Source of the DNA: Obrimoposthia wandeli
Lineage: Eukaryota
DNA: 64,000 nucleotides
Direction: 5' to 3'
NCBI GenBank assembly: GCA_977020255.1
Contig: CDROCS010002560.1
Location: 558,001-622,000 of the forward strand
Both the position numbers and the translations under genes were made by a program. The notes beneath the pieces are model-generated. The model was not told the DNA's origin and made no database searches. It saw nothing but the letters and a program-made list of their open reading frames with translations. Positions 20,863-43,124 of this stretch are shown here, in pieces (position 1 is the stretch's first letter; every line of letters begins with the position of its first letter).

Positions 20863-21904
20863 TGTTGGGTCTTTAATTAAAATTAAATTAATTAAGAAAG
20901 TCAATTTAAATTGACATTTTATAAACTAATCTAAAGTGCCCACAATTAGGGAGGTTTTTCAAATTTCAGCCTCCGACGGGTTGTTAGCCCGTTTCGCCCT
21001 GCCGGGCTCTTCAGGAAGGCGGCTATTTTTTGATAAGAAATAAAAAGTGGTTTTGACCACCAAAGATTTTCCGCCCAGTCTCCCAGCCTAGCAGCAGATC
21101 TTCGCTACCGGGATTTTGCGGATCGGGTTTTTGACAATCTGCCAATGTGTCCAACCGGCCACCCGACCATTCGCCATCACCGTCGACATAGTTCTGCACC
21201 CAGTCGCTATCTGCAGCCGATCTGATTTTCGCCTACCCAACCACCCAACTAACAATTCTTCACTTTGGCGACAGTACATGCCATTTACTCTCTCGGTCGG
21301 CCCTCTTTTCCCAATGCGGTCTCACCTTCATCTCTTTGCTGACATTAATTGGAAAGTTACGGTTTCTTTATTTCTATTTTGAATCCCCATTTTAAATGTT
21401 CTATTGTGTATCTACAATTCCCCGGATTCGCCCCTTTCTTTTTCTGTGTGTGCTTATTCAAATTTATCTATTACTTTAGCTGTTATGTTCGAATATTTGG
21501 TGTGGAAGTGCAATACCGGGCGACCGATTTCTATTGGGTTTGGCGTGATCTGTAGGCGAATCAACTTCTAGTGTCTCCAGTTGACATTTGGACGATTGCT
21601 ATTTATAGCAATCGTCGTGTCGATTTTGATAATAAAATTATTAGCAGTTAAAAATTTGTCTTATTGATTACAAATTATAACATTTGTTTCTACAAATAAA
21701 AATTCTTAATTTATTAACTTATCAATTGTATGGAAAATATATGATAAACACAAAACAAATTTACTTGGATTTTTGATCGTTCCTGATAAAAAGTATTTTG
21801 GAATTGGATTTTTGATCGCTCCTGTTGAACGAAACACAAAAAACAAATTTACTAGGATTTTTGATCGTTCCTGTTGAAAAGCAATATCCTCAAAAACTAT
21901 AACA
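20863..21904 (-). mobile_element. LTR-like unit A carrying a hammerhead ribozyme; 4-bp TSD TGTA
   Basis: Ends are TGTTGGGTC...CTATAACA, with TGTA at 20859-20862 and 21905-21908. The opposite TIR arm (~26790-26830) shows the empty site. Confidence 0.85.
20969..21020 (-). ncRNA. Type I hammerhead ribozyme (copy A)
   Basis: Minus strand GCCUUC-CUGAAGA-GCCC(GGCA)GGGC-GAAAC-GGG(CUAACAA)CCC-GUC-GGAGGC has the full core and three paired stems. Predicted cut at 20974/20975. Confidence 0.9.
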
Positions 21905-22494
21905 TGTATGTATATGTAAACATATTTGATTACTAGTAGATTAACAAATACATCAGATGACATCCCTTGCACGTATATAAAATAAAGTTTAATCATGAAT
22001 GTATGCATGTGGGTATGTTTGTATGTAAAGCTTAATCATGTATGTATGTGTAACTACATCATATCAATAAATTTGTTTTAATGCATCAATTCCAATGCCC
22101 GAAAATTCAAATATATGTTTGTTATGGTTACAAGTATTTGTGATTTTTGCTACATCATAACAAGATATATTTACTAAAATGTGGACATAACTTCATCTTC
22201 TCTTGTCATCTAATGTTTTCTAAAGAAACTATGTAATCTTAGATGTTAAACTGAAATTAAAAATAGATCAATATTCTACATGTTATTGATTACAGATATT
22301 AAATCTCGATTAAGGTATTGATATTTCTAATGTAGAATTGAAACTTGGAATATATATATCATAAAACTACTAAGGTTATTCATAATAATTTATCAATATA
22401 ACTTGTATTCATAGATTTTATCATGCTTACAAAGTGTTATGTATTACTATCATTAGAAAATTATAGCTAAAGTAGATATCAAATATCAAATATC

Positions 22495-22762
22495 AACCTT
22501 TCTCCACAACCAATTCTCCCGAGTACGCCAAGATCATTCCAAGGTCATTCCATTCTTTTGTTTAAATGCATCATTTTTGGTGCTTTTCAAAATTTCATAA
22601 TTTATTTTTGGCGCCAAAAATATTTTTGAAATTTTGAATTTGGCGCCAAAAATAAATTATGAAATTTTGAAAAGCACCAAAAATGATGCATTTAAACAAA
22701 AGAATGGAATGACCTTGGAATGATCTTGGCGTACTCGGGAGAATTGGTTGTGGAGAAAGGTT
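22495..22762. repeat. Perfect fold-back, ~124-bp arms with ~20-nt loop
   Basis: 22495-22618 is the reverse complement of 22639-22762, with no mismatch seen. Confidence 0.95.
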
Positions 22763-22840
22763 AGGGTTATGGGTATGGCTTAGGGTTAGGGCTATGGCTG
22801 GGGTTAGGGTTAGGGATATGGGCGTGGTTAGGGTTAGGGT
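22761..22840 (+). repeat. Degenerate telomere-like (TTAGGG)n tract
   Basis: GGTTAGGGTTATGGG..TTAGGGTTAGGG..GGGGTTAGGGTTAGGG..GGTTAGGGTTAGGG. Confidence 0.85.
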
Positions 22841-22963
22841 GCTTTATAATTTGAGAGTTTCATTATGTCTTATTCATATATCCTTATATAGAACTCACAC
22901 GAGATATAAACAAAATGAGTAATTATAACATACATTTATGAATACAACCAAACAAATCCTCAA

Positions 22964-22993
22964 CCAATCATGTGAGGTTAGATAGAATATAAA
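22964..22993 (+). promoter_or_regulatory. Putative CCAAT (22964) and TATA (22988) promoter of the central ORF
   Basis: CCAAT, then TATAAA ~30 nt before ATG 23020; AATAAA at 23540 lies just after the stop. Confidence 0.4.
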
Positions 22994-23019
22994 CAATTCA
23001 GCCATTATTTCTGATCACA

Positions 23020-23523
23020 ATGTTGATAAACATCGAGAAGAAGATAGCAATATCAGTGAAGAGGATCAATTCCATTGCATTGAAGAAAAGAAGCAAGAAA
23101 CAGTCTATGGATTTTATTAAACAATTAGATATCTTCAGTGATCTCATCAAATTGAAGAAACCGAAATTTCAAGATCCTTATCATAAATTCGTATGGGATA
23201 TGTATTTACTTGAAAATCCTATAACATACCACTTCTCCAATCATGTCAATGTAACGAAAATCAAGTTTGACTATATCATCAGAGATATCTATGAAGAAGA
23301 TGTTATACAATTGAATGAACTCATGCAACAATTGGATATTGGATATAAAATCCATAGAAATTCTATATTGGTGAGAGCTGATGAAGGTATTTTTGCAGAT
23401 TATTGGAATGTTGAAAAGGATATGAAAAATGGAAAATGGACTCTATTCATAATGATTCAAGGATTTATGACCAAATGTGATGGAAGTTTAAAACCTATAT
23501 GGAAGATTACGAAGGATGTATAA
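23020..23523 (+). CDS. Uninterrupted 167-aa ORF of unknown function in the spacer of the non-autonomous element
   Basis: Open, non-repetitive protein-like composition, flanked by TATA and polyA signals. It is the only long ORF between the arms. No family recognised with confidence. Confidence 0.55.
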   Translation: MLINIEKKIAISVKRINSIALKKRSKKQSMDFIKQLDIFSDLIKLKKPKFQDPYHKFVWDMYLLENPITYHFSNHVNVTKIKFDYIIRDIYEEDVIQLNELMQQLDIGYKIHRNSILVRADEGIFADYWNVEKDMKNGKWTLFIMIQGFMTKCDGSLKPIWKITKDV

Positions 23524-25019
23524 TGTTATAGAAATTAATAATAAATATTTATGTTTTATCTTACGAATTTATGTCCAAATATAGACATATGCACATGCAC
23601 CAACTTCCCTTGTTCTTGTTATCCAATTAGAAGCTTGCAATATTTAGTCAATACTTGCATCAACCAATCAGAACATGGACATCTTTACATATATTATGTG
23701 TAAATATAAATATGTTCAGCAACTCTCCATAAACATCTTAACCACCATGAGATTTTCCTCTTCTTAACCCTATAAAATAATCTATTTTTAGTAACATTGT
23801 ATCATCTATTCTTATTGGTTAATCTGAGTCTCAGTTTTATATAAACAAAGATATATTTAAATAAACATGTAAGCTGATTTATAGCAACGTCATCATATTA
23901 TTCATGGAAACTCAAGAAGAAAAATCCAATATTATGATGTCATTTTCCGGAATATCAATGGATCAATGTCTACCCAACTGAATTACAATGGAATATACAA
24001 GATTGCACCCTGTGGCTTAGTGACTTCTGTTTGGACTCTATGGAATTAACTAATAAAGGTACGTATTTTCTCCTTTATATTTATTAATATTTTATAAGAA
24101 GTTCGAAAGTTAAGGATATATTGATGCGAATATTGATATTTATTGAATTAGATGATTTATGAAACGCTAGTAATGAATAGTAATATCTTAATAAAATGGT
24201 GAGAAACTATGCTATCTTTAGAAATATTAAACCTAGCCCCTAGATTCAATAATCAGTAGCTACTTGATAAAATAGATTAATCAATAAAATAGTTATGATG
24301 AATTATTGTTAAGGTTTTATTAGGATTTACAACATGTGTTATGATATAGATGAAATATGTGTATTATCGATAATTTTGGTATAAGATTCTTTGTATGCGA
24401 GCTTGTATGATAATCAAAACATCTAAGTCTTCTCTATATTTAACTATATTATTCCATTTTATAGTTTAAATCTCAATGACACATTAGAAAAATCATTATT
24501 CCTATTATCAACCACTTTATGATGGTTGATGATAGTGAGATTAGATGTTGATAATATTGATAAGTTCAGTTTTTCAATAATCAATATGTATGGAAATATA
24601 TGAATTTATGGTATTTGGTAATTTCTCTGAAAGTTAGGGATGAAAGTTTTTGAAAGAAGATTCATGATAGAGATGTTAGAAGATATGGATAGATATGTCT
24701 CGATTTATTGATTATTAGATTCATTCTTATAAAATTTCCAATGTTTTCCTTTACACCCTAACCTGATTATCTAACTCAAAAGTCTTAATATCTTAGTTTT
24801 TACAACAAAATGTTTAAAGTTAAACAACTACAACGTTGAATATTTTAAACAACTGCAACGTAGAATATTTCAATCAATCAACATTGATGTATAAGTAATG
24901 TTAAATTATGTCTGTTATTTAAAAAACATCATTTATGAATGCTTTAATGAAAGAGGTAGGGTTGATATTGGTCTGATTCTATGCTATTCTTTCCTTAAAC
25001 CCTAATACTTGTTATATTT

Positions 25020-25440
25020 TTTCATCTTAAACCTCTTAACATCCATGAGATTATCGTAACTACCACGTTATTTTCCTCCTTAAACCTCTCAACTTCCATG
25101 AGAATTCCCTAACTACTGGAAGATTTCCCTAATTACCATGAGATTTCCTCAACTATCATGGGATTATGCTAACTTTCATGTTATTTTCCTCCTTGAACCG
25201 CTCAACTTCCATGAGAATTCCCTAACTACTACAAGATTTCCCTAACTTCCATTAGATTTTCCTATCATGGGATTATCCTAACTTCCACGTTATTTTCATC
25301 CTTACACCACTCAACTTCCATGATATTTCCCTAACTTCCACGTTATTTTCCTCCTTAAACCATTCAACTTCCGTGAGAATTCCTTAACTTCCACGTTATT
25401 TTCCTCCTTAAACCACTCAACTTTCACGTGAGTTCCCTGT
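25020..25440. repeat. Degenerate ~40-bp tandem repeat (TTTTCCTCCTTAAACCACTCAACTTCCATGAGAATTCCCTAACT-like)
   Basis: Repeated units read directly. Confidence 0.8.
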
Positions 25441-26999
25441 TTCTCTTCTAGAAGCATCTAAATATTGTAAATTTTCTGAACATATCATTAATTTCCTGAA
25501 CACATCAATACTTTTAGAACATAATATAGAACATATAGTTGTTATTATGATAAACAATATCGATGTAAAATTGAAAAAGATAGAGATGTAATGATTAATA
25601 ATAATTAGAGTTTTGTATATACCTTGTATTTCTAGTAAGTATTCAGACATACATGCATACACACACCCAATAGTCTCTATGTTCTATTTTTTTTCTTGTT
25701 CTGTCAGCTTGTAAATTTTTGTAAGTATTCATACATACACACATATTACTATAGTCTAAGTTTAATATTCCCTGCTCAAGCAATCTACCAACAATCAGAA
25801 GACAGTCCAGTGGATTACTATACTCCAATTTCTCTCAGCTAAGTTTACTATGAGTTTGCTTGTTCAATCAATCTTCCACCAATCAGAATACACTCCAGTG
25901 GATTACTATTCTCCGTCCTTCTAGGTATGTTTACTATATTTGCTATACGTTGATTCTACCCCGTTGATATTTAGTATCTACTTTAGCTATAATTTTCTAA
26001 TGATAGTAATACATAACACTTTGTAAGCATGATAAAATCGATGAATACAAGCTATATTGATAAATTATTACGAATAACCTTAGTAGTCTTATGATATATA
26101 TATTCCAAGTTTCAATTCTACATTAGAAATATCAATATATTAATTGAGATTTAATATCTGTAATCAATAACATGGAGAATATTGATCTATTTTTAATTTC
26201 GGTTTAACATTTGAGATTACATAGTTTCTTTAGAAAACATTAGATGAGAAGAGAATATGAAGTTATGAAGAGATAAGATGAAGTGATGTCCACATTTTAG
26301 TAAATATATCTTGTTATGATATAGCAAAAATCACAAATACTTGTAACCATAACAAACATATATTTGAATTTTCGGGCATTGGAATTGATGCATTAAAACA
26401 AATTTTTTGATATGATGCCAGAAATCGTCTCCTCCCTAAAGCCAAGCGCCGGCTGGTCGCCGTAGTACTTTCTTTAGAAAAGTGGATGAATATGGGAATT
26501 GCTGCGATTTATTGCAGGAATTAGCCGTTGACACCCCGAAATCCCGGGACACTCTAGTTATGATGGTGATCAATGGTGTAAAAACTGGCGACTAACCCCT
26601 CGTCATGGTTTCGAACTGACGATTAACTGCCATTTATAATTAGACGTGCTTATGGTGAAAGGTCAACACATACATACGTGATTAAGCTTTACATACAAAC
26701 ATACACACCCGCATACATTCATGATTAAACTTTATTTTATATACGTCCAAGGGATGTCATCTGATGTATTTGTTAATCTACTAGTAATCAAATATGTTTA
26801 CATATACATACATACATACATTTAATTCTGTTTCCAAGTGTCAACATCTGTCTAATTATTCACACACACACATGTATGGGTGATGTAAGCAAATGGAAAA
26901 CATATTAGATGGAATTAACATAGCTTAATTTAGGTAAATAAATTTTGTAAATTTTTTATTACTTTGTTTTAAAAGAAATTGATTTTGAAATAATAAAGT

Positions 27000-27790
27000 T
27001 TTGAAGAAAATAAGTTTTTGAGGAAAATAGGTTTTTGAAGAAAATAAGTTTTTGAAGAAAATAAGTTTTTTGTAGAAAATAGGTTTTTGAAGAAAATAAG
27101 TTTTTGAAGAAAATAAGTTTTGATAAAAAAATTTCAGAAGCAAAAATTTTCATGTACAAAAGTTTTTGGTGAAAATGATGTACAAGTAATTTAAAAACTT
27201 TTTAATTTTGGCGCCAAAATGTTTTGAAAATTTAAACAAAAATTATTGAAAAAATAATTTTTAAACGTTTTGGAAATAATAAATTTTTGAAGGTTTTGAA
27301 CCCTTGAAGGTGTACCCTCGAAGGTCTAATGAAAGTCAGATCAATGCTATTAAATATATAACTTTGAAAAGTAGAAAAATACATTTTTGAAGGGTTTGGA
27401 CCCTTAAAGGTTAAGCCTCAAAGGTCTGAGTAAGTTTTGATCAAGCCTATTATATATAACTTTGAAAAGTAGAAAAATAAATTTTTGAAGGTTTGAACCC
27501 TTGAGGGTTCACTTTTGAAGGTTTTAGACCCTTTGAGAGAACCCTATTCGAGTAACCATATTAAAGAATAAGCTCAAAGTAGCAACTCGAAGAATCAGCA
27601 ATAATAAGTACCTTAAAAGAAGCAACTCAGAGAATTTCCTTAAAAGAAGCAACTCAAATAACTTCCTTAAAAGAAGCAACTCAAATAACTTCCTTAAAAG
27701 AAGCAACTCAGATAACATCCTTAAAAGAAGCAACTCAAATAACTTCCTTAAAAGAAGCAACTCAAATAACCTGCTCAAAGAAGATCCATC
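27000..27790. repeat. Tandem-repeat block present only in the right arm: ~17-bp AAAATAAGTTTTTGAAG array, ~100-bp units and 27-bp AAAAGAAGCAACTCAAATAACTTCCTT array
   Basis: Arrays at ~27000-27130, ~27280-27530 and ~27605-27775; absent at the corresponding left-arm position (~20664). Confidence 0.85.
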
Positions 27791-27932
27791 AAGAGTGAGT
27801 AACCATGTGCTCTTAGTCGTTGTCTTGAAAGACTCATGTCCTCAACATGTGAAAAGAAATAATTCACAAAGGGACAAAGCACGTCACGTGTACAAATATT
27901 GCAAATAAGTGTAATTATTTGTAATTATTTGT

Positions 27933-28006
27933 AAATCACACACTTACACAGATGTGATGAAAATGTCACGTGACATTTTCATCACATCTGTGTAAGTGTG
28001 TGATTT
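27933..28006. repeat. Perfect 74-bp palindrome within the right arm
   Basis: AAATCACACACTTACACAGATGTGATGAAAATGTCAC|GTGACATTTTCATCACATCTGTGTAAGTGTGTGATTT. Confidence 0.95.
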
Positions 28007-28999
28007 TCTCTTCCCTACTGTACACTTCAATACAAGGCAGAGATTTTCTCTGCCTTGTATTGGACTATGTGTGCGGTGAATGTAAACAGTTCTGCTGCTG
28101 AATTGGATTTAGCTGCAGTATTCAGGTAAATTTTTATTTTATTTATATTTTATGCTGCTGCTGCTCCCAATATCGAGTAAGGTTTATTTTTGTTGATTTA
28201 ATTTGATTATATATGTTTAGAAAACACAATAGAAGAGCAAATATATATTGATTATTGTCCTTCTATTGTGTTTTTTCAAACATTATTTGAATAATCATCT
28301 ATTTATAATTGATTAATAATAATCCTTTTAGATGATGTGGTTAGATGTCTATCTTTCATGACATGAGCTCATAGTGAGCACATGGGCTCATGAATCTTAT
28401 GATAACTTTGGGCTCATGGTGAGCACATGAGCTCATAATCTTGAAAATAACCTTGGGCTCATGGTGAGAACATGAGCTCATAACCTTGATGATAACTGTG
28501 GGCTCATGGTGAGCACATGAGCTCATAATCTTGAAAATAACCTTGGGCTCATAGTGAGCACATGAGCTCATAATCTTGAAAATAACCTTGGGCTCATAGT
28601 TAGCATATGAGCTCATGACCTAGACCTTGACCTCATGAGGACATGATCTAGATTTTTCCCATGACCTCATGAGGACATGCCCTTGAACTTATGAGGTCAT
28701 GACCTAGATTTTTCCCATGACCTCATGAGGTCATGACCCACATCTTGACCTCACCGTGACCTTAAGTTCACCTCAAAATTTTTGTCCTCAATTTGACCTG
28801 AACTTGTTCTCAGGGGGGGCTTTGTGCCAGAAGTGCCACATCTACTTACTGAACTTGATAATGTTTTTACTGAAGTTGCTAATTTGATTAGAAAAGGTAA
28901 TTCAAATGAAACCCAAGGAGGTAGTGGATTTAAACGTAAAAATAAGCAAAAAATCAATATAAACAAACGTAAGAAAGTTGAAGGAACAATATTTGCAAA

Positions 29000-30050
29000 A
29001 TGAGTTGCGCCAAAACCGAATTGTGTATTTTTGATAAACCACTTCCACAAGTAGTTGTAGATAATGCTTCCTTTGAAGAAATATTTCTAGTTAACTCTGT
29101 TTCAGGAACCACTTTAACCTATTTAGAATTTAATATTAATGGTTCCAATAGCGAGTATTTAGATTTGAAGGATACTTTGCTTTATGTTCAAATAAAAGTA
29201 TTAAATAGGGATGGTACTAATTTAGAGGAAAATGCAGATGTAACACCTGTAAATTATCTCTTTAATTCTTTATTTAGTGATGCCATTGTTACTCTTAATA
29301 ATGTCAAAATTGAAGGTGGAAATTCTTCCTATGCTCATAATGCTTTGATTGAAAGTATTTTGAATTATAGTACTGATACTCAAAATACTAATTTGGCAAC
29401 CATTGGTTATGATAAAACGGTTGCAACTCGCAAATAATGGATTGCAGGTTCTAAAGCTTACGAAATGTGTGGGTCTTTGAAATTGAATTTCTTTGAACAA
29501 CCGAAATATTTAATTCCCGGTGTTAATGTACATCTTCGTTTGAAACGCAATAAATGGAATTTTTCTTTGATAAGCACAGACGTTCTAGAACCTAAACTTG
29601 ATATTTTGGATGCAAAATTGTATGTCCGAAGAGTTAAAACCGAACAATCAGTTTTAATGGCATATAATATAGGAATGGAAAAAACAATGCTTGTTATCCT
29701 ATTAGAGAAACTAAACTTATATTCTATTCTTTAGGTACGTATACACAAGCTTTTAATAAGGATCAAATTTTTGGTGATGTAAGATTACCGAAATTCATTT
29801 TAATTTCTTTTCACAAAACTGCAAAGTTTCTAGGAAATTATACAACAGATGCAACTCAATTTGACAATCTTAATGTAGGTTCAGTGACACTTTCAAGAAA
29901 TACTGATTATCGCGAAACAAATAAAACAGATTTCGAAGGAAACGCTTATGCTTTCAAAGCAGCTTTAACACATCCTACTACGGTGCTTATATACGAAGTA
30001 TTTGATTCGGAAATACAAATCAATAAAAACAGAACTGTCATATTATAGAA
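29000..30050 (+). pseudogene. Polinton major capsid protein (double jelly-roll), decayed
   Basis: MSCAKTELCIFD..LEFNINGS..YLDLKDTLLYVQIK..NSLFSD..FFEQPKYLIPGVNVHLRLKRN..LYVRRVK..VLIYEVFDSEIQI; contains stops, frameshifts and an apparent internal deletion. Confidence 0.9.
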
Positions 30051-30149
30051 TGAAGTAAGATATTTTTAAAATTTATATTTATTAATTAATATATTATAGA
30101 ATGAAGTAAGATATTTTTAAAATTTATATTTATTAATTTTTATTTAGTT

Positions 30150-30475
30150 CAGTACAAGTACAAGAATCAGCAGAGAAGGTCCTGGTTGATAAATTCAATG
30201 GAGTTTATCCTATTGTTAATATTCCATTTTTTCAATCTGGAGGTTACATTATCAATACTCATACTTCGAATTTACCAGGAGAAGATTGGATAGCTATTTA
30301 TGTTAGAGAGTTGACAATACATCTATTTGATCCACTTGCAATGTATTATCCACACAAACTTGTTTCGACTATTCAAAAAGGACGAAGAAGAGTATTTTAC
30401 AACAAGATACAATATCAGGATCATGCGACGAGAAACTGTGGACATTTATGTATTTTATGGTTATCGTTTTAATGT
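30150..30475 (+). pseudogene. Polinton adenain-like cysteine protease
   Basis: YIINTHTSNLPGEDWIAIYV..FDPLA..QYQD..NCGHLC; the canonical catalytic His (G-E-H-W) reads D. Confidence 0.8.
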
Positions 30476-30696
30476 TTTATTTTGAATTATTTTTTAAATC
30501 CCTAAAAAAATATAAGGGTAAAATAATAAAAGACATAAGACGATTTTTTTAATACATTTATTAAACACAACATCACAACATCATAATAGCCCAACCTAAA
30601 AAAAGTATTGAAATAACAAAAAGTTAGAGTCCAAGGTACCATATGGATCTAAAATTTAAAAAAACTAAACAATAAAAATCAAAAAATGAAAACCGT

Positions 30697-32770
30697 TTAA
30701 ATTCGGAAGTGTCCATAAGCTAGGCTAGCGTTCTTTTCTACCCAAAAGCGCTTGTCGTCATTACTACTCAAATCGATTTTTGTTGATTTATGAGAATACA
30801 GTTGATGGGCTCTTGAAATAAATCTAGTTTGCTCAACGCTTTCAATACACCCAGTATCATAAACTTTCCGGTAGGCCTCATGTGTAAGATTGGTTCTTCC
30901 CACACCCTTTGCTCTCGTTGAACATGTATAATTAGATGCATATAAACTGTAGCATTTAGGGAGTAGGAAAATACAATCATCATACGAAACCTGTCCCTCG
31001 CTTTCATCCTTAAATTTCCTGATAATATCCTTTAAACTCATATAGTGTAGAGGATGGTTAGCGGAATATTTATAGGTATCTAATAAGTTGTCCCTAAACA
31101 TTACCGGTAATAATTGATTATCTAAACTAACATTTTTACATTCTAAAAAGAAAGAGTCAGTGTCCCCAGCTGCGATTTTGATCTCACAATTGAATTCTTG
31201 TTGATATTTCTCTAATTCTATGTATTGAAGCTCGTACATTCTGATTTTAGAAATGTCTAAAACCGTTTGACCCATATAACTCGGTCGATCGATACAAATA
31301 CTCTGTTTTCCTAATAACACTGCTACCAAGTCATCTGCAATTGTAAAACTAGGCTTGAAGTTGTACTTGCTAGTATATGTTATTAGTTTACGCTCATAAT
31401 TGCAAAATCGTAGACAAATACGTTTCCGCAAGTCCTCTACAGTTTTTCCAAAGAGACTATTACTTTTTAACTTGTAAAAATCTCGATCGAATTTGCTAGT
31501 GGCCAAATTACGTTTTCTTGAATTCTTCTCAATATAGTCTTTAAACACAAAGTTTTGACTGAAGCTTATAGCACGATGAATTCGAGTAACTTTCGCTCCC
31601 AACTTTAAGTAGAATTGAAGAAGCCGCCAATGCACAGCATAATTCAACTTGTCTTCATGTGTTAACAATAATTTCTTAACCTTTGAATAAGATGAGCATT
31701 GATGAACAGGCGCTACTGGAAGATCATCTAATTTATCATGCACATTGGAAGGGATTGTTAAGTCAAGGTCAACCAAATAGCCGACGTCTGATGAAACTGT
31801 ATCAACAGTAGCCAAATATGTCATCAACTAATTCAACTCTTCCTCATCATAAACCCACTTAAAGTTGGCATGAGGTAGAGGTTGAGTAAGCGCCCACCCA
31901 TACAAATTATTAATATCGATGTACAGAATCTCCGTGAATTGATTTTTGACAACATGATGTTTGTTGACAAAAGCCATTCCACTGAGTATACCATAATCAT
32001 ACATTTGATATATCGCGGGATCTTGCAGTAACTTGATATTAATTTTAAGAGTTTTTATTGCTGTTGCCCATGAAAGACCAGGTAAACTAAAGAAATTCAT
32101 GGGATCTAGTCCATATTCTGCTAAAGATTTTACACAAAAGGACTCAAAAACATCAGCTAAACAATAAATGTCTAACTTCATATAATAAAGCATATATTCT
32201 AGAAGATTTCTTTACCCCTTTTGCCAACACGCTATACAGAAAGCAAAAGTTATCACTGTTTTGTACGTTAACAATGGAACGTGAAAGTTGAAGAGATCTA
32301 GGTGAAGGAATGTATGAACTCCTTGAAAGATATATCATGTCAGTGAAGTTTGTTAGAACAAAGCTAAAATCGTGAATTCTAACAAGAGTCCATCCACTAC
32401 TTAACTCGCTATAATTAACAATTTTTTCATCTAGGTTTCTTCCAATTTCATTTACATAATTATCATAGAAAACAGTTGCTTTATGTGAAATTACCCAAGT
32501 TTTAACTCCTCATTGATATTTTTAAACTGCACTGTTGCGCAAAATTGAACCTTATCATGTCCTAATTTAGTCACTTCTGATTTTAAAAGACTTTCAATAT
32601 TTGAATCTACACCTACGTTTAATAAAATTGTATTTCCTAATGGCACCTTAACTATAACATATTTATTATTTAGGTGATACTCTACAGTAGCACCGTTTTC
32701 CCTACGTTTCTTTGGTGGGACCTTATTAAGAAATTGGCCTCGCCTCTTTCTTCCGTTTGTCGCTGACAAA
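30697..32770 (-). pseudogene. Protein-primed family B DNA polymerase (pPolB), internally deleted
   Basis: LDIYCLADVFE..YIDINNLYGWALTQPLP..KLKSNSLFGKT..AAGDTDSFF..PKCYS..DDKR; N-terminal QNSDNFCFLYSVLA is joined almost directly to the late exonuclease motif. Confidence 0.92.
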
Positions 32771-33262
32771 CCTGCCCCTAATTGAATGGGAAGACAACTA
32801 TTTATATTAACAGTTGATGCTGGTGCTGCTTATGTTGAGGCAATCGCAGCTGATGTAGACGGTGCTACTGTAGTAAGTCAAAAGACCCAAATTTGTAGAA
32901 AATACATTTGTTTATAACGAAAAAAAAACATTTATCAAAGAATTATTAAAATAACGAAGTACTCAGGATTCATTTTTCACGTTAAGATTGGTATATATTG
33001 TCAATTATCCTATGAATATTAAAATTAATTATATTAAATGTAAACATACCTAAATATTTCGAAATTAAATTACATATTTTATCTCCAACAATTTCCGGAG
33101 TATCATTTTTTGAGAAGTAATTTTTTTGTCATAATCTTCCATTAAATCTGGAGATAATTTAATGTATAATTTATTCCAATTTATTATATTATCCATTTTA
33201 CAAAAATACATTACATATAAAATTGTTTATATTTAATATGCTTATGTAAAATATTTAGACAA

Positions 33263-33616
33263 TTATGTAACATAAAAATAATCAAATAAGGACAAAGAAA
33301 AAATCATATTCAAAAATTTATTCCGGTTTATTCTGGAGGATTCTCTTTCTTGCAGCTCGCCACCAGTCCTCCATCTCTTCTCTTCTTTTTCATCCAGTTT
33401 CTTTTTTTCCAATTCAATTTTCTTATTCCTATCCAGGATCCGTTGTCGTTCTGCTAGCCGCCTGTCCTGAATCTCCACCCTACGATTCCACTCGGTCGCG
33501 ACAGCAGCGTAGAGATTCTGATTGAGGACCCTCTTTCTTAAATCCCCTTTCTTCTCATTTCTCCTGATATTTTCTTCTATCTTCGTCACGAGACTTTTCA
33601 TTTTAATAAATTCCAT
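33263..33616 (-). CDS. 117-aa charged, coiled-coil-like Polinton accessory ORF
   Basis: Open ORF rich in E/K/R inside the Polinton; no family recognised. Confidence 0.35.
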   Translation of the reverse strand: MEFIKMKSLVTKIEENIRRNEKKGDLRKRVLNQNLYAAVATEWNRRVEIQDRRLAERQRILDRNKKIELEKKKLDEKEEKRWRTGGELQERESSRINRNKFLNMIFSLSLFDYFYVT

Positions 33617-34039
33617 TTTTTTAATTATGAAGAGGTTAATAAATTTGAACTTAAATTTATTTATTTAAGATATTTTTAATCCAATCACATTCAATTAAAT
33701 GATATATTTTTATTTGTCAAACGAGAGTTTAATAAATCTATAACTAATCATTGTATTTCTTTATAAATTTTAAATGTTATCTATTTGAAAATAAAAAAAA
33801 TAATAAAAAATTTAAAAACATGTAGAATTATTCCTAATTAATCCAATCACATTCGATAAGTTAATTATTTTTTTCAACTTGATAATTTAATAAACTTAAA
33901 GATAGTATTTTAATATTACTAAATTTTTAAAGAAATTTTAAATTTTAAAAAAATTTATTTTTAATAAATATAAAGAAGAAAACGAAACACTAGAAATTAA
34001 TTTTATATATTATATTATTTTTAAAAAACTTCACAAAGT

Positions 34040-35620
34040 CATCATTGGGATCATCCTCATCGAAATCCCTCCGACTGCGTTTTATCGAAGTAAGCGGTAC
34101 TGGCTCCTTCTTATTTGGTCGGCCAGGTTTCTTTTTCGGCTTCACCGGTTGTTGTGCAGCAACATTTTGGGAGGAGGTGTGCAGCCTTCCTCTTCTGCAG
34201 AGCTTTCTTCAGTTTCTCCTCCTTCTCACGCTGAAGCTGACGTGATATGGCATCCTGCTGCTCTCGCGAATCTGGAAGCCTAGCCAGTTGTAGTGTATCC
34301 AGTTCCGCAAGGAATTCGTCCAATCCAGCTTCATCCCAGGCCCTCTTCAAGTTCTGGCTGGTTGTTGGACGAGGAGAAGCAGTCTCCCAAGCCCTGGCCA
34401 AATTTTGGGTGATGTTTAATAGAGCCCTTGTTGTCTTCTGCAGGCGTCGTTGACTGGGAGGCGGACTAATCTCGATCGGAGAGACTGGGATCCTCTCGTA
34501 CAGAATTGGCCCGTCGTCCACTGGAGATGGGAGAATCTCCTGCCGTACAATCACCGCCTCAGAAGAATTTCGAATTGTAGTGCAACATTTTCTCGAGCTC
34601 TTCGTCTTCTTCACCTCTGTTCGCTTCGTCCGTTTCTTGGGGAATGGAGTAATTTCTCCCCAAGTCTCCTCAATTATCCGGACGGGTTCCTGCAAAAAAC
34701 ATTGATAGAATTTTTAACTAAAAAAATATAATTAAATATTAAAAAATTTACCTCTATAATCGGATATATGGAAGTTTTTCCTGCCGCTCCATCAATACCT
34801 CGGTAAATTTGAGCAGACAATATGTCATCTTTTTAGGGCTCCTCATCTTCCGCACAGCAACCCGCTTCATTCGTCTCTGCGGGAAAGGAGAAATTTTCCC
34901 TCACGTCTTCTTAGTTAATTGTATTGGTTCCTGCAACAAAAAACATCAATAAAATTTAAACATATAAATAATTGACCTCAATGACAGGCAGTTTTGACCC
35001 GATGGCGTCGCGGTTTCTTAACCGCCGCTTGCTTCCTATTCACCGGTTGAATAGGCGGCGCCTCTTCGAGAAAGTTCTCCACCTATGTGAATTATTAAAT
35101 TTAATATCAAATTAAAATATAATTTACCTTAACATTATCTGGAGACGCTAGGTATTGGAGCTCACTCCTTGGCAGCTCCTGGCTGCATTGACTCGCCAAG
35201 TACTGCGGTTCTATGAGCCTCTCCGCCGTGGTCACTGACGGTGCCAAATCGAGTTGAAGTTTCAGAAAATGAAATTAAAAAACATTTTAAATAAATTAAT
35301 AGACTAACCTCATTCGTCGCCTTTATTCTCCTAACAGCACGTATCGGAGATTGTGGCCTTCTGAATGGTTCAGGCACCATATTGTCGGCTATCGGAGTTG
35401 GAGTAGCAGAGTGAGTGAGACCATCCCAATCGTCAGTGAACAGGTGCCACTCGTCCTCGTCCAATTCTGCCACCATCGAATCGTTGGCTCCTGAGGCTCC
35501 GATACTTGGATGTATCCATTCGTAGAACGCGAGAAAAAAAAATTGACCATGTATATATGTATTGATCTTCAGGCCACCGCTGGACCGAAGGCACGCGTTG
35601 ACCCTTAGGCACTTTCTCAC
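34040..35620 (-). pseudogene. Spliced Polinton accessory gene with four short AT-rich introns, decayed
   Basis: GT..AG introns at 35127-35083 (45 nt), 34976-34931 (46 nt) and 34751-34690 (62 nt). A fourth has donor GTTAGT at 35308 and an apparently mutated acceptor (~35262); splicing it keeps the frame open. Exons are GC-richer than the introns. Confidence 0.6.
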
Positions 35621-36350: not shown

Positions 36351-36410
36351 AACATGAGACCAGGTACTTCTGCATCAAATTATGCTGGTCTAATCATCAT
36401 ATTCAAATTC

Positions 36411-36626: not shown

Positions 36627-38689
36627 TTATACTACTTATTTTATACTTAAATATTTTCATAAATTTCAAATTTGGGCTCTAACACATGGTATTATTCCTA
36701 GATACATATATAGATACCTTAAGTGCTTCAATAGTATTCAAATATTTAACAAAAGAATTCCTTCTGTACTCGTAAGACAAAAATGATCATTTAGGTTTAT
36801 TTCTGGCATACATGTTTTGGCTCATATCTTCAGATAGGAAGAATACTTCATGATCGTACAAAAATAAATGACCATACTGGTATCTTGAGCAGAAGGGAAA
36901 TAATAGCATCAACATTTGATCTTTCATGACTGAAGTAGTCAAAATCTCAAATAAGCCTTATTTCTTGTCTTTGAAGTTTATGTATGATACTGTTTGTTTA
37001 AAGATTCAATTTTTTCTGAAACTTTTGTGGTTTGTGTATATTTCGTAGAAACCTTTTAATATGTCCTTCTCTGATTTTTTAGAAAGCTCATTCAGCTGTA
37101 CTGGTAATTTCCAAATAATCACAGTTTGACTTAAACTGATTTTGAAGACATATAACTTATAAATTGTATGCTATCCTAAAATCGGATGCATTTGATATAA
37201 ATTTTATACTGTGTGAAAACGTTGGAGGTTACCCAATACGGGTTTGTTTTTCAAAAATATTCTACAATTCATGTTAATCCATTTTTTGCAGTTTCTTAGT
37301 ATGTTGAATTACAATATTTTACTAAATAAAATGTTAAATTTCTTTAAAACAAATTTTAAACAATTTACTAAAATTTACTAAAATTTAGTTTTTAATTTCT
37401 GTATTATTTTTTATTTGGATAATATAAAAAGTAAAAATAAAACGAGTAACGAATCATTCAATTTCAAATATTCAATATTTTAATTGATATAATATTATGT
37501 ATATATATGATTTTATATATATAATTTATAATTTGTTTAAATTCTTCAAATTTAAACATTTTAAATGTAAATTTTTAAAAAAAATTAGGCGTTTAAAACA
37601 TATTATTTAAAGTTTGATACATTAATTATGTTTTTAATGAATATTTAAATTCATACTAATCATATGAAATAAATTATTTTATGTTTGAAATATTAGTTTA
37701 GAGTTTCTGTTATAAAAGGTATTTTACTTTAAATTTATAAATTTTTTTTAAGCATACTAGAGTTTTTTTAATTTTTTTTTTTAAAAAATGGATGTTCTAA
37801 AACTATGGCTTTTTAACATAAATGAAATATAATTAAATGAATACCAGGAATCTAACAAACTATAGATTAAATTATAATACAAAAAAAAATAAAAAATACA
37901 GTAATCGTCGGAATGAAAAGGGGATTCTCAACTAATGACAAGATTTTATTGTGCTGTCAGCTCTTTGTAAATGTGATAAAATTTATAATTAAATTTTAAT
38001 AAATTTATTTCATTTAATATTACACTAAAATATATCAAATCTTTAGAAATAAAACTTGTTACTTCAACAGTATTCATATTGTTTCCAAATGCACAATACT
38101 TTTTTTGGTCAAGAACTCTTGATGTAGATTCACTCCTTCAAAGCATATATGGACCCCAATTATTTAAATAACAACTACCATTTTTAATATAGTAATAATT
38201 ATTTTGAATTCTTTTAGTAACAGTCAAATTTTTGTGATCTTTGAGTTTTATTTTTATTTATAAATTCTTAAATGCGAAGTGTGATGACTACTTCTATGTA
38301 TGAGATTGTTTTCAATCAAAAATATATTTCTTTACTTGGTTTTCATAAACTTATATTTTTTCTTTATGTATATATTGGGGTGTTGGGTTTTAACAAAAAT
38401 ATTTTCATATTCGGCAGATATAAATGAAAACTGAATTATTTTTTAAAACAAAAATTCATATTAAAACGTAAATTAGTAAATTAATAGTTATGATAAAGGC
38501 AAATAATAATCACCAAATCAATCTATAACTCAACAACTGAGGCACCCATCAAGTAAAAAATATATCTTAATGAATTTAACAATTCAATTAACATTTAGAA
38601 TGAATAAACTAAAGTTCACTTTTAAATTAGTGTTACATTTGATAATTGTTATATTTTTAATGGATTATTATTTTCAACTAATTCATTTG

Positions 38690-38930
38690 TAAACATTTCT
38701 GTCTTCAGTAATAACAGCAACAATAATAATCAAAAATAGCAATAAAAATAATGATCAGTAAAAATTCTGTTTTAATCAATAAATGAAATAATAATTTCTG
38801 TTTTCAATAATAACAGTAATAAATATGGTCAGCAATAATTTTTGTTTTCCGTAATAACAGTAATAATTATGGTAAGCAATAATTTCTGAATTCTGTAATA
38901 ACAGTAATAAATATGGTCAGCAATAATTAT
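38690..38930. repeat. Degenerate AATAACAGTAATAAATATGGTCAGC-like tandem repeat
   Basis: Several imperfect copies read directly. Confidence 0.6.
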
Positions 38931-40564
38931 TCTTTTTGTTGCAATTTACGAATTGGTTTTAGAAATTATATCAAATCTCTCTATACTAAAAAAATTTATA
39001 TTTTTATTTCAGTCGTAAGTGACATTATATAAATTTGCAGACACACATACTTAAACACACATATGGACGCACTATACAGATAGAGGCAGTAAAATAACAT
39101 ATGTGTGTTTGTGGTGCACTTAAAATTGCACTGTAAATAAAATCGATAATGGATGCAATAATTCCTTTTGTGTTATCTCCTTCATCGCGGGCAATTTTTC
39201 CATCGCGAAGCAAAAGATAAAATCTGGTCATCGCTGTCTTAAAAAATCGCTTTTCGACTGTGGGCACTTTGATAAATTAATTTAAATCTTCAATTGGCAT
39301 ATTTCAATTGCCAACATTAGTAAATATAGTTAGTTTAATGTTTACTTTAAAAAATTAAAATAATTACTACTCACTGTTAGTTTCTAAAAAATTCAAAGTT
39401 TATCAACAAAATAAAACACTTGTAGATCAGCTTTTGTGTAGAAACTGCTGTACATGTATACATTTTCTTATTTTGTTAGAATCACGAAACTGTTATTAGA
39501 GTAACGGCAAATACTATTCCACAAATAGCGGTTTCCTAACATTGCTTCGATAAGATCAATGTAGTAAGTTTGAATTTTGATGAGATATCATGGGATTTTG
39601 TAAAAAAATCAGATCATAGTTGAGATGAACACAAAATTACTTAGAATCAATTATTGGTTTAATGTATCTGATGATATACTGTCGGAGAAAACTATGGTTT
39701 TCCAGTTTGTGAAATTGATGTAAGGTTAACTGGTTCTTCAAATCAAGTGTAGCTTATTTCCTTTTTCATGAGCTGTCAATGAAAATAAAATTCCACATGG
39801 CTCAATTGTCAACTTTCTCTTTGCCAAATGCCTCCATTTCTTTGATTTTCTTAAACTGTTTTTTTTGTAATATTATGAAATCTTTATCCTCTTATATGAC
39901 TTGCCTTCAAAATTGGTTTTCATAGAATTTGTTTTTTAAAATATCTATTTACTGCTTTACTTGTTTCTATAGAATGTTTCTCTTAAAAATTATTCGACAA
40001 TGAAATTTAACTAAATATATTGAAACCCGGTGAATAAACCCCACCAATTTTAACCAAAATTCGTGTCAAAATTTTGGCTTTCTTTAAACTTATTTAAAAT
40101 ATGAAACCTGAAGATTATATTTTAGTGGGGTTTAACAGTTTGTAAAGCAGAAATATTTATTTACGAAAATCAATGTTTTGAGATATTTTTGTTATGATTT
40201 ATTATTTTTCAACATGGTAAATATTAATCAATTTTATTGATTAATTTTGACATCTTTGATTTTCATCAAATTCGTTTAATAACTATATTTTCTGAAGTTT
40301 ATACAAAATTATAAATGTGTTATCTCTGAATGGTTTTATTATATTCTCCAAATTAAATATTTATTTTTGTAAGCATAAAATTTTCCAATTCATATATTTG
40401 TAAGCATAAAAATTTTCAATTCATATATTTGTAAGCATAAAAGTTTTCAATTCATATATGTTGGGTCTTTAATTAAAATTAATTAAAATAAATTAGTCAA
40501 TTTAAATTGACATTCTTTAAAATTATCTAAAGTGCCCACAATTAGGGAGGTTTATCAAATCTCA

Positions 40565-40616
40565 GCCTCCGACGGGTTGTTAGCCCGTTTCGCCTTGCCA
40601 GGCTCATCAGGAAGGC
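40565..40616 (-). ncRNA. Type I hammerhead ribozyme (copy B)
   Basis: Minus strand GCCUUC-CUGAUGA-GCCU(GGCA)AGGC-GAAAC-GGG(CUAACAA)CCC-GUC-GGAGGC; stem II carries a compensatory C-G to U-A change relative to copy A. Confidence 0.92.
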
Positions 40617-40874
40617 GGCGAAAAAAGCGGTTGATAAAAGGGATTCTTATCATAAAAATATTACCGCCCAGTAGCAGCGACCTATTCCCTTCATGATCAT
40701 CCGGAGAGGCAACAACCTTCTATCATCCTCTCGGCAACATTCAATCATCCCATAATCCCTACTAATCTCCCCGCCGGCCAGGCGCTACCTGCCGTGGACT
40801 TTCAGCCAGCAGTGCAGACAGCGACTACATCTCGATGCAATTTCCCTCTGGCTGAAAACCAACAACGTGACAGC

Positions 40875-41305
40875 GAATTGCGGGAACAAATGTCACCCAG
40901 AAACAGCCTCATCCACGTGTACCCAGAGCACAGTTTGAAAGAAGCGGCTGACATCATACAAAGCCACAATATCCACAGATTGCCGGTCCTCGACCCCAAT
41001 AACGGCAATGTTCTCAATACTGTCACTAACTACCAGATATTCCATTTTTTCTACAGGAAAATTATGGTGCAGGGCAAATTTTGGAAATAACAAATGGACG
41101 CAAATGAGAGAGAGAATATGTAAAAATGTGTTGTTTATTTTACAATTATCAGAAGCCAGCGTGTTTCACCAATCCGAGGTTCATGCATGAGACCCCCTTC
41201 ACTCTTGGCCTCGGCTGCTATGACGACCGAATCGCCACTGTACGTCCGGCCCAGACGGTGTTCGAGGCTCTGACTATTTTCAGCAACACACACACTTTCC
41301 CTCTG
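40875..41305 (+). pseudogene. PRKAG: Captured AMPK gamma-subunit (CBS-domain) fragment: two exon pieces and an 86-nt intron
   Basis: LIHVYPEHSLKEAADIIQSHNIHRLPVLDPNNGNVLNTVTNYQIFHFF, then intron GT 41067..AG 41152 (phase 0), then KPACF..LGLGCYDDRIATVRPAQTVFEALTIF. Collinear with AMPK-gamma IHRLPVIDP..GN..KPEF..IGTY..IA.V..V..AL.IF. Confidence 0.8.
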
Positions 41306-42135
41306 TGAATTTATAGATCAGTCTGCTGATCCTATACAGACAACTCCAATTTAATTTTATCGTAAAACATTTCGATTGGTCGATATTACCAGATAAAAAT
41401 ACATGTGTCTATGTCCCTATATTGGCATGCCCTCGCCTGTCCCTCTCACCAATGTCACTGCACACCCCTGCCTTCTCCTTCAGTCAATCTGACATTTGGG
41501 CGATTGCTATTTATAGCAATCGTCGTGTGGATTTAGATCAATCAATTCTCATTTTTACAAATTTGTCATTTCAGTTTTCATTAACACAATTATTATTGCC
41601 AAGAATTTGAAATTTATATACAATTTGACTTGAAATTTTGATTATATTTTATGCCCACGAAGTTGAAATTTATATCCAATTACAAATTATAACATTCAGT
41701 TTTCATTAACACAAAAAATATATATCAATTAGAAAACGATTCAATTGGAATTTATCGGGATAACAATTTAAACATTTAAAGAGTTTTAATTATCAAAGAG
41801 AAGAAAAACGATTCAATTGGAATTTATCTGGATAACAATTAAATATTATTGGAAAATTTATTGATCAGTCATTACTAATATAACCTTCGGATCAGTCTTT
41901 TCAATTATAACATATATTTGTAAGCATAAAAGTTTTCAATTCATATATTTGTAAGCATAAAAGTTTTCAATTCATATATTTGTAAGCATAAAAGTTTTCA
42001 ATTCATATATTTGTAAGCATAAAAGTTTTCAATTCATATATTTGTAAGCATAAAAGTTTTCAATTCATATATTTGTAAGCATAAAAGTTTTCAATTCATA
42101 TATTTGTAAGCATAAAAGTTTTCAATTCATATATT

Positions 42136-43124
42136 TGTAATGATGAAAATTTTTGTAATACTGAATATTTAATGATCATTCTGAACGACGATTGCCATAA
42201 ATAGCAATCGTCCAAATGTCACGCCAGTCGGGATCAGCCACTGGTCATGGAGGGAGGCGCTGTGGCACTGTGCGAATGGAACGACGATTTCCATTGCCCA
42301 AATGTTAAACGACTATTTTAAGACGGCAGCTGCAGATTGTGATAGTAGTGGCTGTTTGGGTGACGAGGTCAGGGTTGGCAACAGTGAAAGCAACAACCGT
42401 TTGATAATAACTCTCTGTCTCTGACTTTTTATTATCATTTGAACACATTCACCTAGCAGTGTGCATCCCAAATATCCAACCGCTGCACACACACTGGACA
42501 AATCTGGGCAGAGAGGAGAAGTACCGATATTTCCCGGCTCTGCACACACTCACATGTGCAGCCGGGAAAATCTACCGCCTGTCGAACTCTGGGCAGGCGG
42601 AAAAATTTTAATTAAAACATACACACACATGTGCACAATATATAAGTAAGTGAGTGAGTAGGGAGAGTGAGTGAACAAGGGATTGAGTGAGCGATTGAGT
42701 GAGTAGTGAGAGTGAGTGAGTGAGTTGAGTGATGTGTTAATGTTGAGTGAGTGTGTGTGTGTGTGAATGGTGCACTTGCGCACACTAACACCACATGTCG
42801 ACGATATTCGTCGGCACATGAAAGGGGGAATCTTTCCCTCTTTTTTATTATTGTTATCTCTGGCTTCGCGGAATCCACCGCGAAGTTAGAGATAACAAGC
42901 CATCTCCCTGATGAGCCCGGCAGGGCGAAACGGGCTTTTTTCTCGTCGGAGATTGAATATACAAAATGCCAAAGTGTACAATTTAAAATCGGAACTTTTC
43001 CCTAATTAAGGAAAGTTCCCAATTAATTTTTAATTAATTAATTCCCTTTTTCCTTTTATTTCTTTAAAAATTTTATATTTTTATTTTTCTTTTTTAAACA
43101 AATAGTTAATATATTTTCCCAACA
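42136..43124 (+). mobile_element. LTR-like unit C (inverted relative to A and B) carrying a hammerhead ribozyme
   Basis: Ends are TGTAATG...TTCCCAACA (reverse complement begins TGTTGGG, as in A and B). It shares the 26-bp palindrome (~42187-42212). Flanks are TATT and TATG (3/4 TSD match). Confidence 0.75.
42902..42953 (+). ncRNA. Type I hammerhead ribozyme (copy C)
   Basis: AUCUCC-CUGAUGA-GCCC(GGCA)GGGC-GAAAC-GGG(CUUUUUU)CUC-GUC-GGAGAU; stem I differs in sequence from A and B but still pairs. Confidence 0.9.

Follow-up and report, generated by a model that had tools for sequence, protein, structure and literature searches.

Three related units, A, B, and C, lie upstream of the BicD (Bicaudal-D) gene in the window, the 64,000-nucleotide stretch of Obrimoposthia wandeli DNA that we analyzed. 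Each contains one hammerhead motif:

20969–21020, minus strand: hammerhead A, type I, predicted cut 20975/20974, 112 nt from the 3′ end of unit A
40565–40616, minus strand: hammerhead B, type I, predicted cut 40571/40570, 112 nt from the 3′ end of unit B
42902–42953, plus strand: hammerhead C, type I, predicted cut 42947/42948, 177 nt from the 3′ end of unit C

All three have the type I features (a core of CUGANGA, GAAA, and NUH, three helices, and an open helix I). The original prediction had described an intact core, CUGA(A/U)GA-G...C-GAAA-C...GUC, in every copy; stem II as CCC/GGG in A and C and CCU/AGG in B; stem I as GCCUUC/GGAGGC in A and B and AUCUCC/GGAGAU in C; and a 5-bp stem III with a 7-nt loop. 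Each of these was present as described, with one G-U pair within stem III of C. The proposed cut sites also agree with ours, and the strands, which had not been given, are now assigned.

A type I descriptor matched the window exactly three times, at A, B, and C. In order-1 Markov simulations (n = 150), it matched 0.02 times on average and once at most, and three matches were reached in 0/150. In a search with covariance models, which had been suggested as a check, no Rfam match reached the gathering score; at E ≤ 10, the single match was to Hammerhead_3 (RF00008) near C, at 23.8 bits versus a gathering score of 48.5, with no Hammerhead_1 row. Across the three copies, 54 of 54 stem cells were paired. 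Two-sided changes occurred in 3 of 18 pairs and were equaled by 21 of 500 shuffles, a modest signal from three related sequences.

On the ribozyme strand, the three units share one order: an AT-rich segment, a 37-bp TATA-containing palindrome, a GC-richer middle, the hammerhead, and a tail of 112–177 nt. Identity among the units is 95–97% in the palindrome and 78–95% in the hammerhead, with the middles at shuffle level. The termini read TGTNR on both strands and form an exact inverted repeat of just 4 bp. Such ends are Gypsy-like, as the available text of PMC2836005 gives TGTNR for most Gypsy LTR elements. Unit A comprises the following:

20863–21904, minus strand: unit A, solo-LTR-like, 1042 bp, TGTTATA...CCCAACA ends, 4-bp TGTA duplication
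21582–21618, minus strand: conserved 37-bp palindrome of A, with TATAAATA at its center

A paralogous empty site near 26800–26815, with flanks 96% identical, contains four TGTA units versus the 3+2 that flank A. Because the insertion site is a microsatellite, the TGTA duplication is ambiguous by itself. An initiator-like TCA directly follows the palindrome, and together they form a putative core promoter of A.

Unit B contains additional, gene-like features:

40459–41912, minus strand: unit B, solo-LTR-like, 1454 bp, TGTTATA...CCCAACA ends, exact 4-bp TATA duplication
41490–41526, minus strand: 37-bp TATA palindrome of B, from sequence comparison
40866–41066, plus strand, antisense to the ribozyme strand: AMPK-gamma-like (CBS) exon 1, from Pfam, PDB, and tblastn
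41067–41152, plus strand: retained 86-nt GT-AG intron, predicted to be spliceable
41153–41308, plus strand: AMPK-gamma-like exon 2 with a stop at its end, colinear with exon 1

The TATA duplication was verified against the uninterrupted 31-bp minisatellite unit. A contig from run X2 matches through 41912 and continues with 52 unlike letters, leading there into another flank, which places a boundary of B at 41912. A parse with a 2-bp duplication (ATGTT...AACAT ends) fits the window text and was rejected, as it is contradicted by the contig departing right after 41912.

Exon 1 matched the Pfam CBS domain (E 1.3e-7), and its best PDB matches were AMPK gamma-1 (E 4.9e-9); weak similarity may begin as early as ~40760. 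Using tblastn, 138 of 150 proteins matched at exon 1 and 9 of 150 matched both exons colinearly, with a frame change between the two blocks that results from the 86-nt length of the intron. Exon 2 searched alone gave no AMPK match. With the cargo exon as query, word-based protein searching also gave no match, while exhaustive searching did. The fragment is present in roughly 10–25 copies. Judged from these alignments, the middle of B holds a captured host gene fragment, consisting of two exons and an intron, in antisense to the ribozyme strand.

Unit B is nested inside C in the opposite orientation and splits a minisatellite of C into two parts:

40318–43124, plus strand: unit C, probable full extent, ~1349 bp without B, TGTTATC...CCCAACA ends
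40362–40458, plus strand: left part of the 31-bp minisatellite, within the AT-rich 5′ segment of C (TRF row 40362–40459)
41913–42140, plus strand: right part of the 31-bp minisatellite (TRF row 41911–42140)
42185–42221, plus strand: 37-bp palindrome of C, with CATAAATA at its center, from sequence comparison
42792–42898, plus strand: three stable hairpins immediately 5′ of hammerhead C, the last of 21 bp

The flanks of C, AATG and TATG, agree in three of the four letters of a target duplication. A contig from run X3 joins 40371 to the palindrome via 32 other letters. We read C as interrupted by B, with a start at 40318, and not as 5′-truncated at ~42136. This 5′ boundary is less certain than those of A and B. 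The region containing the hairpins (42770–43030) gave a folding z of −10.7, equaled by 0 of 200 shuffles, and A and B have no such hairpins 5′ of their hammerheads.

We consider it reasonably likely that A–C represent solo LTRs from a retroelement family of high copy number. Its members would depend on a Gypsy/Ty3-type integrase, carry a type I hammerhead in the LTR, and be the animal equivalent of the LTR retrozymes of plants. This LTR-like setting, the notable part of the observation, was absent from the original prediction. The TG...CA ends (in A and B, and in C if it starts at 40318) and the 4-bp duplications of A and B support this reading. In all three units, the hammerhead lies downstream of the putative LTR promoter, whose function is suggested by its motif. 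Retention of the intron in B is what one would expect of a fragment carried in antisense through an RNA intermediate; it fits capture at the DNA level equally well. Helitrons and DIRS elements were rejected on characteristic features of these classes. Helitrons make no target duplication, and a hairpin at the very end also counted among the features used.

The same ends and intron bear on the possibility that the units are non-autonomous DNA "pack" elements, mobilized without an RNA intermediate by a Ginger2-type integrase-like transposase acting on short TGTT...AACA ends, with the TATA element driving a cargo transcript that the hammerhead ends. TGTNR ends and 4-bp duplications are also found in Ginger2 elements, as is a preference for RTATAY (PMC2836005, available text), which the B target, ATATAT, matches; all three units are single, and B retains its intron. 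However, Ginger2 terminal inverted repeats are ~50–180 bp in that source as against an exact 4 bp in A–C, the targets of A and C fit RTATAY less well, and the asymmetric layout from promoter to ribozyme is LTR-like. We therefore regard these DNA elements as unlikely.

To place the units within the genome, we used depth and contigs from DNA sequencing runs, of which four are listed, all of one sample and study and possibly the window's own source, which inform copy number and boundaries and not independent occurrence. Summed depth over the hammerhead was ~1e6, compared to 36–113 on single-copy contigs and flanks in run X4. High depth continues from the hammerhead to the CA terminus and falls there; near the 3′ end of C, it drops from 193,064 to 113 across 43127/43128 (run X4). 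This DNA contig depth suggests thousands of hammerhead-bearing copies. Depth over the palindrome was ~2e4, which is 30–50 times below the hammerhead and about 4–10 times below the 3′ tails, so many hammerhead copies may carry different 5′ sequences or be laid out differently. The G-U wobble of stem III is peculiar to C: at position 42943, nearly all of the depth has another letter.

A–C are not stand-alone host ribozymes. Domestication of individual loci by the host, with the ribozymes kept for regulation near Bicaudal-D, would account for the intact cores and for the position of the units upstream of that gene, but it is hard to reconcile with the thousands of related copies, with the nesting and the duplications at insertion sites, and with a wobble pair that C alone has, and we judge it extremely improbable.

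No two-LTR copy, no primer binding site (PBS) or polypurine tract (PPT), and no internal region was found in the window, where each of the three units is flanked by host-like DNA at either end, and no two-LTR arrangement occurred among the listed short-contig matches. The window also contained no tandem hammerhead repeat, no tRNA within the units, and no reverse transcriptase (RT) or GIY-YIG Pfam match among the 20 of its 29 ORFs that were scanned. A decayed BEL/Pao element at ~6.5–10.5 kb has no DNA in common with A–C. In 3/3 units, AATAAA was absent from the stretch that runs from the ribozyme to the 3′ terminus; ATTAAA occurs near the ends of A and B.

We also considered an autonomous Gypsy-type retrotransposon as the source of the solo LTRs, one in which the hammerhead replaces polyadenylation or defines the genomic RNA. 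LTRs of 1–1.45 kb, far above the ~350 bp of plant retrozymes (PMC4918200, available text), and the lack of AATAAA in all three units are consistent with such an element. Yet cleavage within the 5′ LTR would be expected to strip the mRNA cap and the 5′ copy of R, ATTAAA is found near the ends of A and B, and no coding internal region was seen in the window, making this very unlikely.

The original prediction held that the conserved stems reflect selection on structure. The hammerhead of C is 78–79% identical to those of A and B with all pairs kept, while the middle and tail are at shuffle level (0.43–0.48). In loose contig ends from other family copies, loop III is altered and stem III is still paired. 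Selection on structure is thus supported, but not for three host loci: because A–C belong to a high-copy mobile family, the most plausible target of selection is the lineages of the amplifying element, and not loci A–C for the host.

Conservation could instead have been maintained in another family of higher abundance, with the hammerhead and tail a Penelope-derived or non-LTR-retrozyme module that travels as a passenger of the LTR. In the available text of PMC7229834 and the preprint 10.64898/2026.07.22.740005, animal type I hammerheads are tied to Penelope-like elements (PLEs) and tandem retrozymes; insertion of a SINE into TRIM LTRs has been proposed (PMC10886601, in part); and hammerhead depth far exceeds palindrome depth. 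However, the high depth extends to the CA terminus, and neither a tandem hammerhead repeat in the window nor an RT or GIY-YIG match in the 20/29 scanned ORFs was found. Nor would a passenger be expected to show compensatory stem I changes that divide C from A and B when the tails have diverged to noise. A passenger origin is, in our estimation, quite unlikely.

The original prediction also proposed that the motifs could fold and cleave as monomers. For 52-mers of A and B, the hammerhead fold was the minimum free energy (MFE) structure, with probabilities of 0.33 (A) and 0.21 (B); for the 52-mer of C, it lay 2.5 kcal/mol above the MFE (probability 0.003). In an 81-nt context, B and C were predicted to misfold. 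Monomer folding is thus predicted for A and B but not for C. A–C had been contrasted with the many animal hammerheads that have a very short stem III. The stable helix III of A–C is not unusual: most invertebrate type I hammerheads have one and cleave as monomers (PMC7761336, available text).

In all three copies, GGC in loop II is complementary to GCC just 5′ of stem I, a candidate tertiary contact that is invariant across A, B, and C. Phage hammerheads that share stem II had the same loop II/GCC register in 4/4 matches (three distinct loci). We examined covariation in a phage set of at least 125 matches, at least 114 of them distinct and at least 94 with a 4-bp stem II, with 91 tested after duplicate removal. 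Among these listed hammerheads, loop II paired with the upstream sequence in 4 of 91 versus 2.0 expected, which was not significant (p 0.13). Within a subset with NGCA loops, chosen afterwards, 3/3 were paired, AGCA/GCU included.

If A–C are solo LTRs, their replication might proceed as follows. RNA polymerase II would initiate ~25 nt downstream of the TATA box. In the transcript of a two-LTR parent, the hammerhead of each LTR would then cleave, aided by pairing of loop II GGC with GCC. The product would be a unit-length RNA with a 5′-OH and a 2′,3′-cyclic phosphate and without terminal redundancy, which a host ligase could circularize. The RT of a helper element would then copy across the junction and its integrase would insert the DNA, and LTR-LTR recombination or short cDNAs would leave solo LTRs. 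The stretch from promoter to ribozyme would be free to vary and able to acquire host DNA, with B as an example. We propose, tentatively and as a possibility that we rate below an even chance, that this genome is heavily colonized by circular-RNA LTR retroelements that combine a type I ribozyme with a Gypsy-dependent cycle, and that their promoter-ribozyme cargo bay amplifies antisense host fragments.

The closest parallels come from sources available in part. Plant LTR retrozymes have 4-bp duplications, solo LTRs, LTRs of ~350 bp, and no coding capacity (Cervera/Urbina/de la Pena 2016, PMC4918200), and in NbRZ1, the LTR contains a promoter, a start, and then the hammerhead downstream (PMC12029980). 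A–C resemble them in the hammerhead placed in the LTR after a promoter, the 4-bp duplications, Gypsy-like ends, solo LTRs, and non-coding nature. However, plant LTR retrozymes are type III with LTRs of about 300–400 bp, whereas A–C are type I, 1042–1454 bp, and from an animal, are known here as solo copies alone, and, in B, carry captured host exons within the LTR. Metazoan non-LTR retrozymes are 150–450-bp tandem repeats with no LTRs and duplications of >4 bp (PMC7229834; Li et al. 2026, preprint 10.64898/2026.07.22.740005). They share with A–C canonical type I hammerheads, a stable helix III, many copies, and an invertebrate genome, but A–C are dispersed, single, and 1–1.45 kb, with TG...CA ends and 4-bp duplications.

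Similarly, the pLTRs of Penelope-like elements and Terminons have a type I hammerhead near the element end, but PLE hammerheads are described as minimal, without helix III or tertiary contacts (PMC7761336, PMC8557442), whereas A–C have a helix III of 5 bp, a candidate tertiary module, and precise TG...CA ends, with no RT or GIY-YIG match in 20/29 ORFs. Like the proposed element, the TRIMs Cassandra, Helenus, and Ajax are LTR elements that are non-autonomous and whose LTR contains a structured-RNA module, and Helenus, from animals, has 4-bp duplications (Kojima 2024, PMC10886601). The TRIM module is a Pol III promoter of tRNA or 5S type, while that of A–C is a ribozyme. Ginger2 shares TGTNR ends and 4-bp AT-rich duplications with A–C but has 50–180-bp terminal inverted repeats and a transposase, neither of which A–C contain (Bao et al. 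2010, PMC2836005).

Beyond this genome, the full hammerhead pattern had no match in metagenome contigs or prokaryote genomes, and a relaxed type I pattern matched one GC-rich locus that is unrelated to A–C outside the motif. The 37-bp palindrome had no match in viral contigs; the four viral pattern matches were phage type II hammerheads with only the ribozyme core in common with A–C. Within the full texts searched, no animal LTR element was described as containing a hammerhead, although an earlier annotation may exist in Repbase/Dfam, a supplement, or a subscription paper; the pairing of hammerhead and LTR is described only for plants in the partly available sources found.

These sources divide hammerhead retroelements into type III, LTR-associated elements of plants and type I, non-LTR, Penelope-tied elements of animals. 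If our reading is correct, a type I hammerhead fixed in animal Gypsy-like LTRs would break this split and suggest more than one origin of LTR retrozymes. Dispersed "solo" animal hammerheads, which tandem-repeat pipelines would miss, would gain a testable job. The antisense AMPK-gamma fragment of B would represent gene-fragment transduction within a ribozyme-bearing LTR, and antisense AMPK-gamma transcripts from B-type copies could act on the host gene.

Three type I hammerheads, A, B, and C, were found at the positions given in the original prediction:

20969-21020, minus strand: type I hammerhead A
40565-40616, minus strand: type I hammerhead B
42902-42953, plus strand: type I hammerhead C

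These were the sole matches to a type I descriptor in the window; 150 simulated windows contained a mean of 0.02 hammerheads, and three were attained in none of the 150. All 18 stem pairs were standard in all three copies (54/54 cells). The stems had been described as covarying, and three pairs, two in stem I and one in stem II, did change on both sides. However, since 21 of 500 shuffles equalled this number and the three sequences are related, the evidence for covariation is modest. When the proposed covariance-model check was carried out with Rfam, A, B, and C were not called, as the scan returned no match at gathering score; the single match below it was to a type III hammerhead near C (23.8 bits).

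The ribozymes sit within discrete insertions that resemble solo LTRs:

20863-21904, minus (ribozyme) strand: unit A, 1042 bp, TGTTATA...CCCAACA
40459-41912, minus (ribozyme) strand: unit B, 1454 bp, TGTTATA...CCCAACA
40318-43124, plus strand: unit C (probable extent), best 5′ end TGTTATC at 40318, 3′ end CCCAACA at 43124

The repeat that A interrupts also occurs without an insertion at 26666-27002 (96% identity to the flanks of A), with four TGTA units where three plus two surround A. B splits one 31-bp minisatellite unit and is flanked by an exact TATA duplication, and a contig from another insertion diverges from the alignment immediately past 41912. At the 3′ end of C (43124), depth in X4, one of four DNA sequencing runs of one sample, drops from 193,064 to 113; the flanks of C are AATG and TATG. 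If C begins at 40318, the minisatellite belongs to its 5′ segment and B is a nested insertion, a reading supported by a contig that joins 40371 to the palindrome described below via 32 other letters. An 11-mer at this proposed 5′ end (40318-40328) occurs just once more, at 42852-42862, where it opens a 21-bp hairpin before hammerhead C. It could be an LTR-end relic, the start of a shorter ancestral LTR (candidate 42852-43124, which lacks a duplication), or an RNA pairing partner.

The most likely reading, somewhat more probable than not, is that A, B, and C are solo LTRs of a Gypsy-dependent element. That they are a Ginger2-like DNA pack element is fairly unlikely: their terminal inverted repeats, at just 4 bp, fail the repeat test for that class.

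To assess copy number, we aligned contigs from the four runs on 40300-43300. Summed depth at the ribozymes in X4 was about 0.95-1.09 million, whereas single contigs had 36-51 and the right flank 111-113. Because overlapping short contigs inflate these sums, we read them only as thousands of hammerhead-bearing copies, the same order as three hammerheads per 64 kb. Depth reached about 20,000 at the palindrome and 75,000-193,000 at 3′ tails, a gap that may stem from how little sequence can be aligned there or from copies with different 5′ parts.

All three units have the same module order on one strand: an AT-rich 5′ segment with a GC content of about 0.25, the 37-bp palindrome, a middle of 560-870 nt (GC 0.44-0.46), the hammerhead, and finally a tail that is again AT-rich. 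The predicted cut lies 112 (A), 112 (B), and 177 nt (C) from the unit end. The palindrome centers on TATAAATA in A and B and CATAAATA in C, and it ends in TCA ~25 nt farther on. Pairwise identity is 0.95-0.97 in the palindrome and 0.78-0.95 in the hammerhead; the middles (0.43-0.48) and C's tail (0.46-0.48) are at shuffled-control level. The strongest evidence of selection comes from these two conserved islands, in units that cannot be aligned elsewhere. The proposed selection on structure is supported, but it points to the element's own life cycle; host domestication of the ribozymes is highly improbable.

The TATA palindromes (21582-21618, 41490-41526, and 42185-42221) have 9-bp arms and an 8-bp asymmetric spacer. 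Their conservation beyond that of the ribozyme is unusual for a core promoter, and they could serve in RNA dimerization or recombination. Three strong hairpins immediately precede the ribozyme of C (z -10.7).

The ribozymes had also been proposed to fold and cleave as monomers. Folding was predicted for the 52-mers of A and B, where the hammerhead is the minimum-energy structure (probabilities 0.33 and 0.21), but in C it lies 2.5 kcal/mol above the minimum (0.003), and once flanks are included, misfolding is predicted for both B and C. The G-U pair in C's stem III is private to C; in loose ends of contigs from other family copies, loop III is altered and stem III kept or longer. As none of the loop III variants seen is palindromic, predicted action as a monomer fits better than as a dimer.

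Loop II GGCA is complementary to GCC directly 5′ of stem I, and UGA follows stem I, in all three copies. Searching with the core alone turned up four type II hammerheads in phages (three distinct loci), all with the identical loop II/GCC register. These four, on IMG/VR contigs L001-L004, have a 24-nt core and stem II in common with copy C but no similarity outside the ribozyme. A broader loop II pairing test was not significant (4/91 paired, p 0.13); NGCA loops, a subset chosen post hoc, paired in 3/3. Pseudoknots between stems I and II speed cleavage (part of PMC3088659), and a tertiary contact of loop II with GCC is likely in A, B, and C.

The middle of B contains two colinear AMPK-gamma-like exons on the strand opposite the ribozyme, with an 86-nt GT-AG intron between them. 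Of 150 proteins compared, 138 matched exon 1 and nine matched both exons; no further AMPK exons occur elsewhere in the window. Contigs over this cargo have depth 1,024-1,123 and show no other letters, which corresponds to some 10-25 copies; amplification of the fragment therefore followed its capture. The retained antisense intron would be compatible with RNA passage and equally with DNA-level capture.

Other features of the window include:

18046-18522: chromodomain ORF, part of Polinton/Maverick-like remains
30697-32211: DNA polymerase B pieces (weak Pfam matches)
44909-60665, plus strand: Bicaudal-D gene exons, the first about 1.8 kb beyond unit C

The broken Polinton/Maverick-like remains (about 18000-35000) are interrupted by other repeats and presumably include capsid-like pieces (28982-30048). 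Degenerate GGTTAG telomere-like repeats (22759-22840) come right after a 268-bp near-perfect palindrome (22495-22762; 96%), which is probably a foldback/MITE. A ubiquitin C-terminal hydrolase ORF, possibly captured cargo, consists of one exon (454 aa; Pfam UCH, E 1e-21) and is flanked by two inverted fragments, 84% identical (set at 292-810, 2698-4062, and 4302-4808), which we take to resemble a non-LTR retrotransposon at its endonuclease end. A decayed BEL/Pao retrotransposon (about 6500-10500; Peptidase_A17, E 5e-33) is unrelated to A-C. The host is an invertebrate; Bicaudal-D relatives among the named matches listed are mostly from molluscs and rotifers, none close.

As solo LTRs of a Gypsy-dependent element, the units would derive from a parent whose transcription begins at the TATA module in the 5′ LTR. 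Ribozymes of both LTRs would cut the transcript, and the unit-length RNA would be ligated into a circle. A helper would reverse-transcribe across the circle junction (an autonomous Gypsy element is very unlikely), integration would yield the 4-bp duplication, and the internal part would later be lost to leave a solo LTR. We infer the RNA steps and the two-LTR parent; parts of PMC4918200 describe the same cycle for plant retrozymes, and a section of PMC12029980 places their LTR promoter upstream of the ribozyme.

The proposed working resembles that of plant LTR retrozymes; however, those have a type III ribozyme and a short LTR. Animal non-LTR retrozymes share the ribozyme type but are tandem and LTR-less, and an origin of the hammerhead as a passenger, brought in from a PLE or a tandem retrozyme, is unlikely. 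Excerpts of PMC7229834, PMC7761336, PMC12029980, and a 2026 preprint state this plant-LTR/animal-non-LTR split. The main text of PMC5408684, on rotifer LTR elements, leaves ribozymes unmentioned, and our literature search, spanning few subscription papers and no repeat databases, found no animal LTR with a hammerhead.
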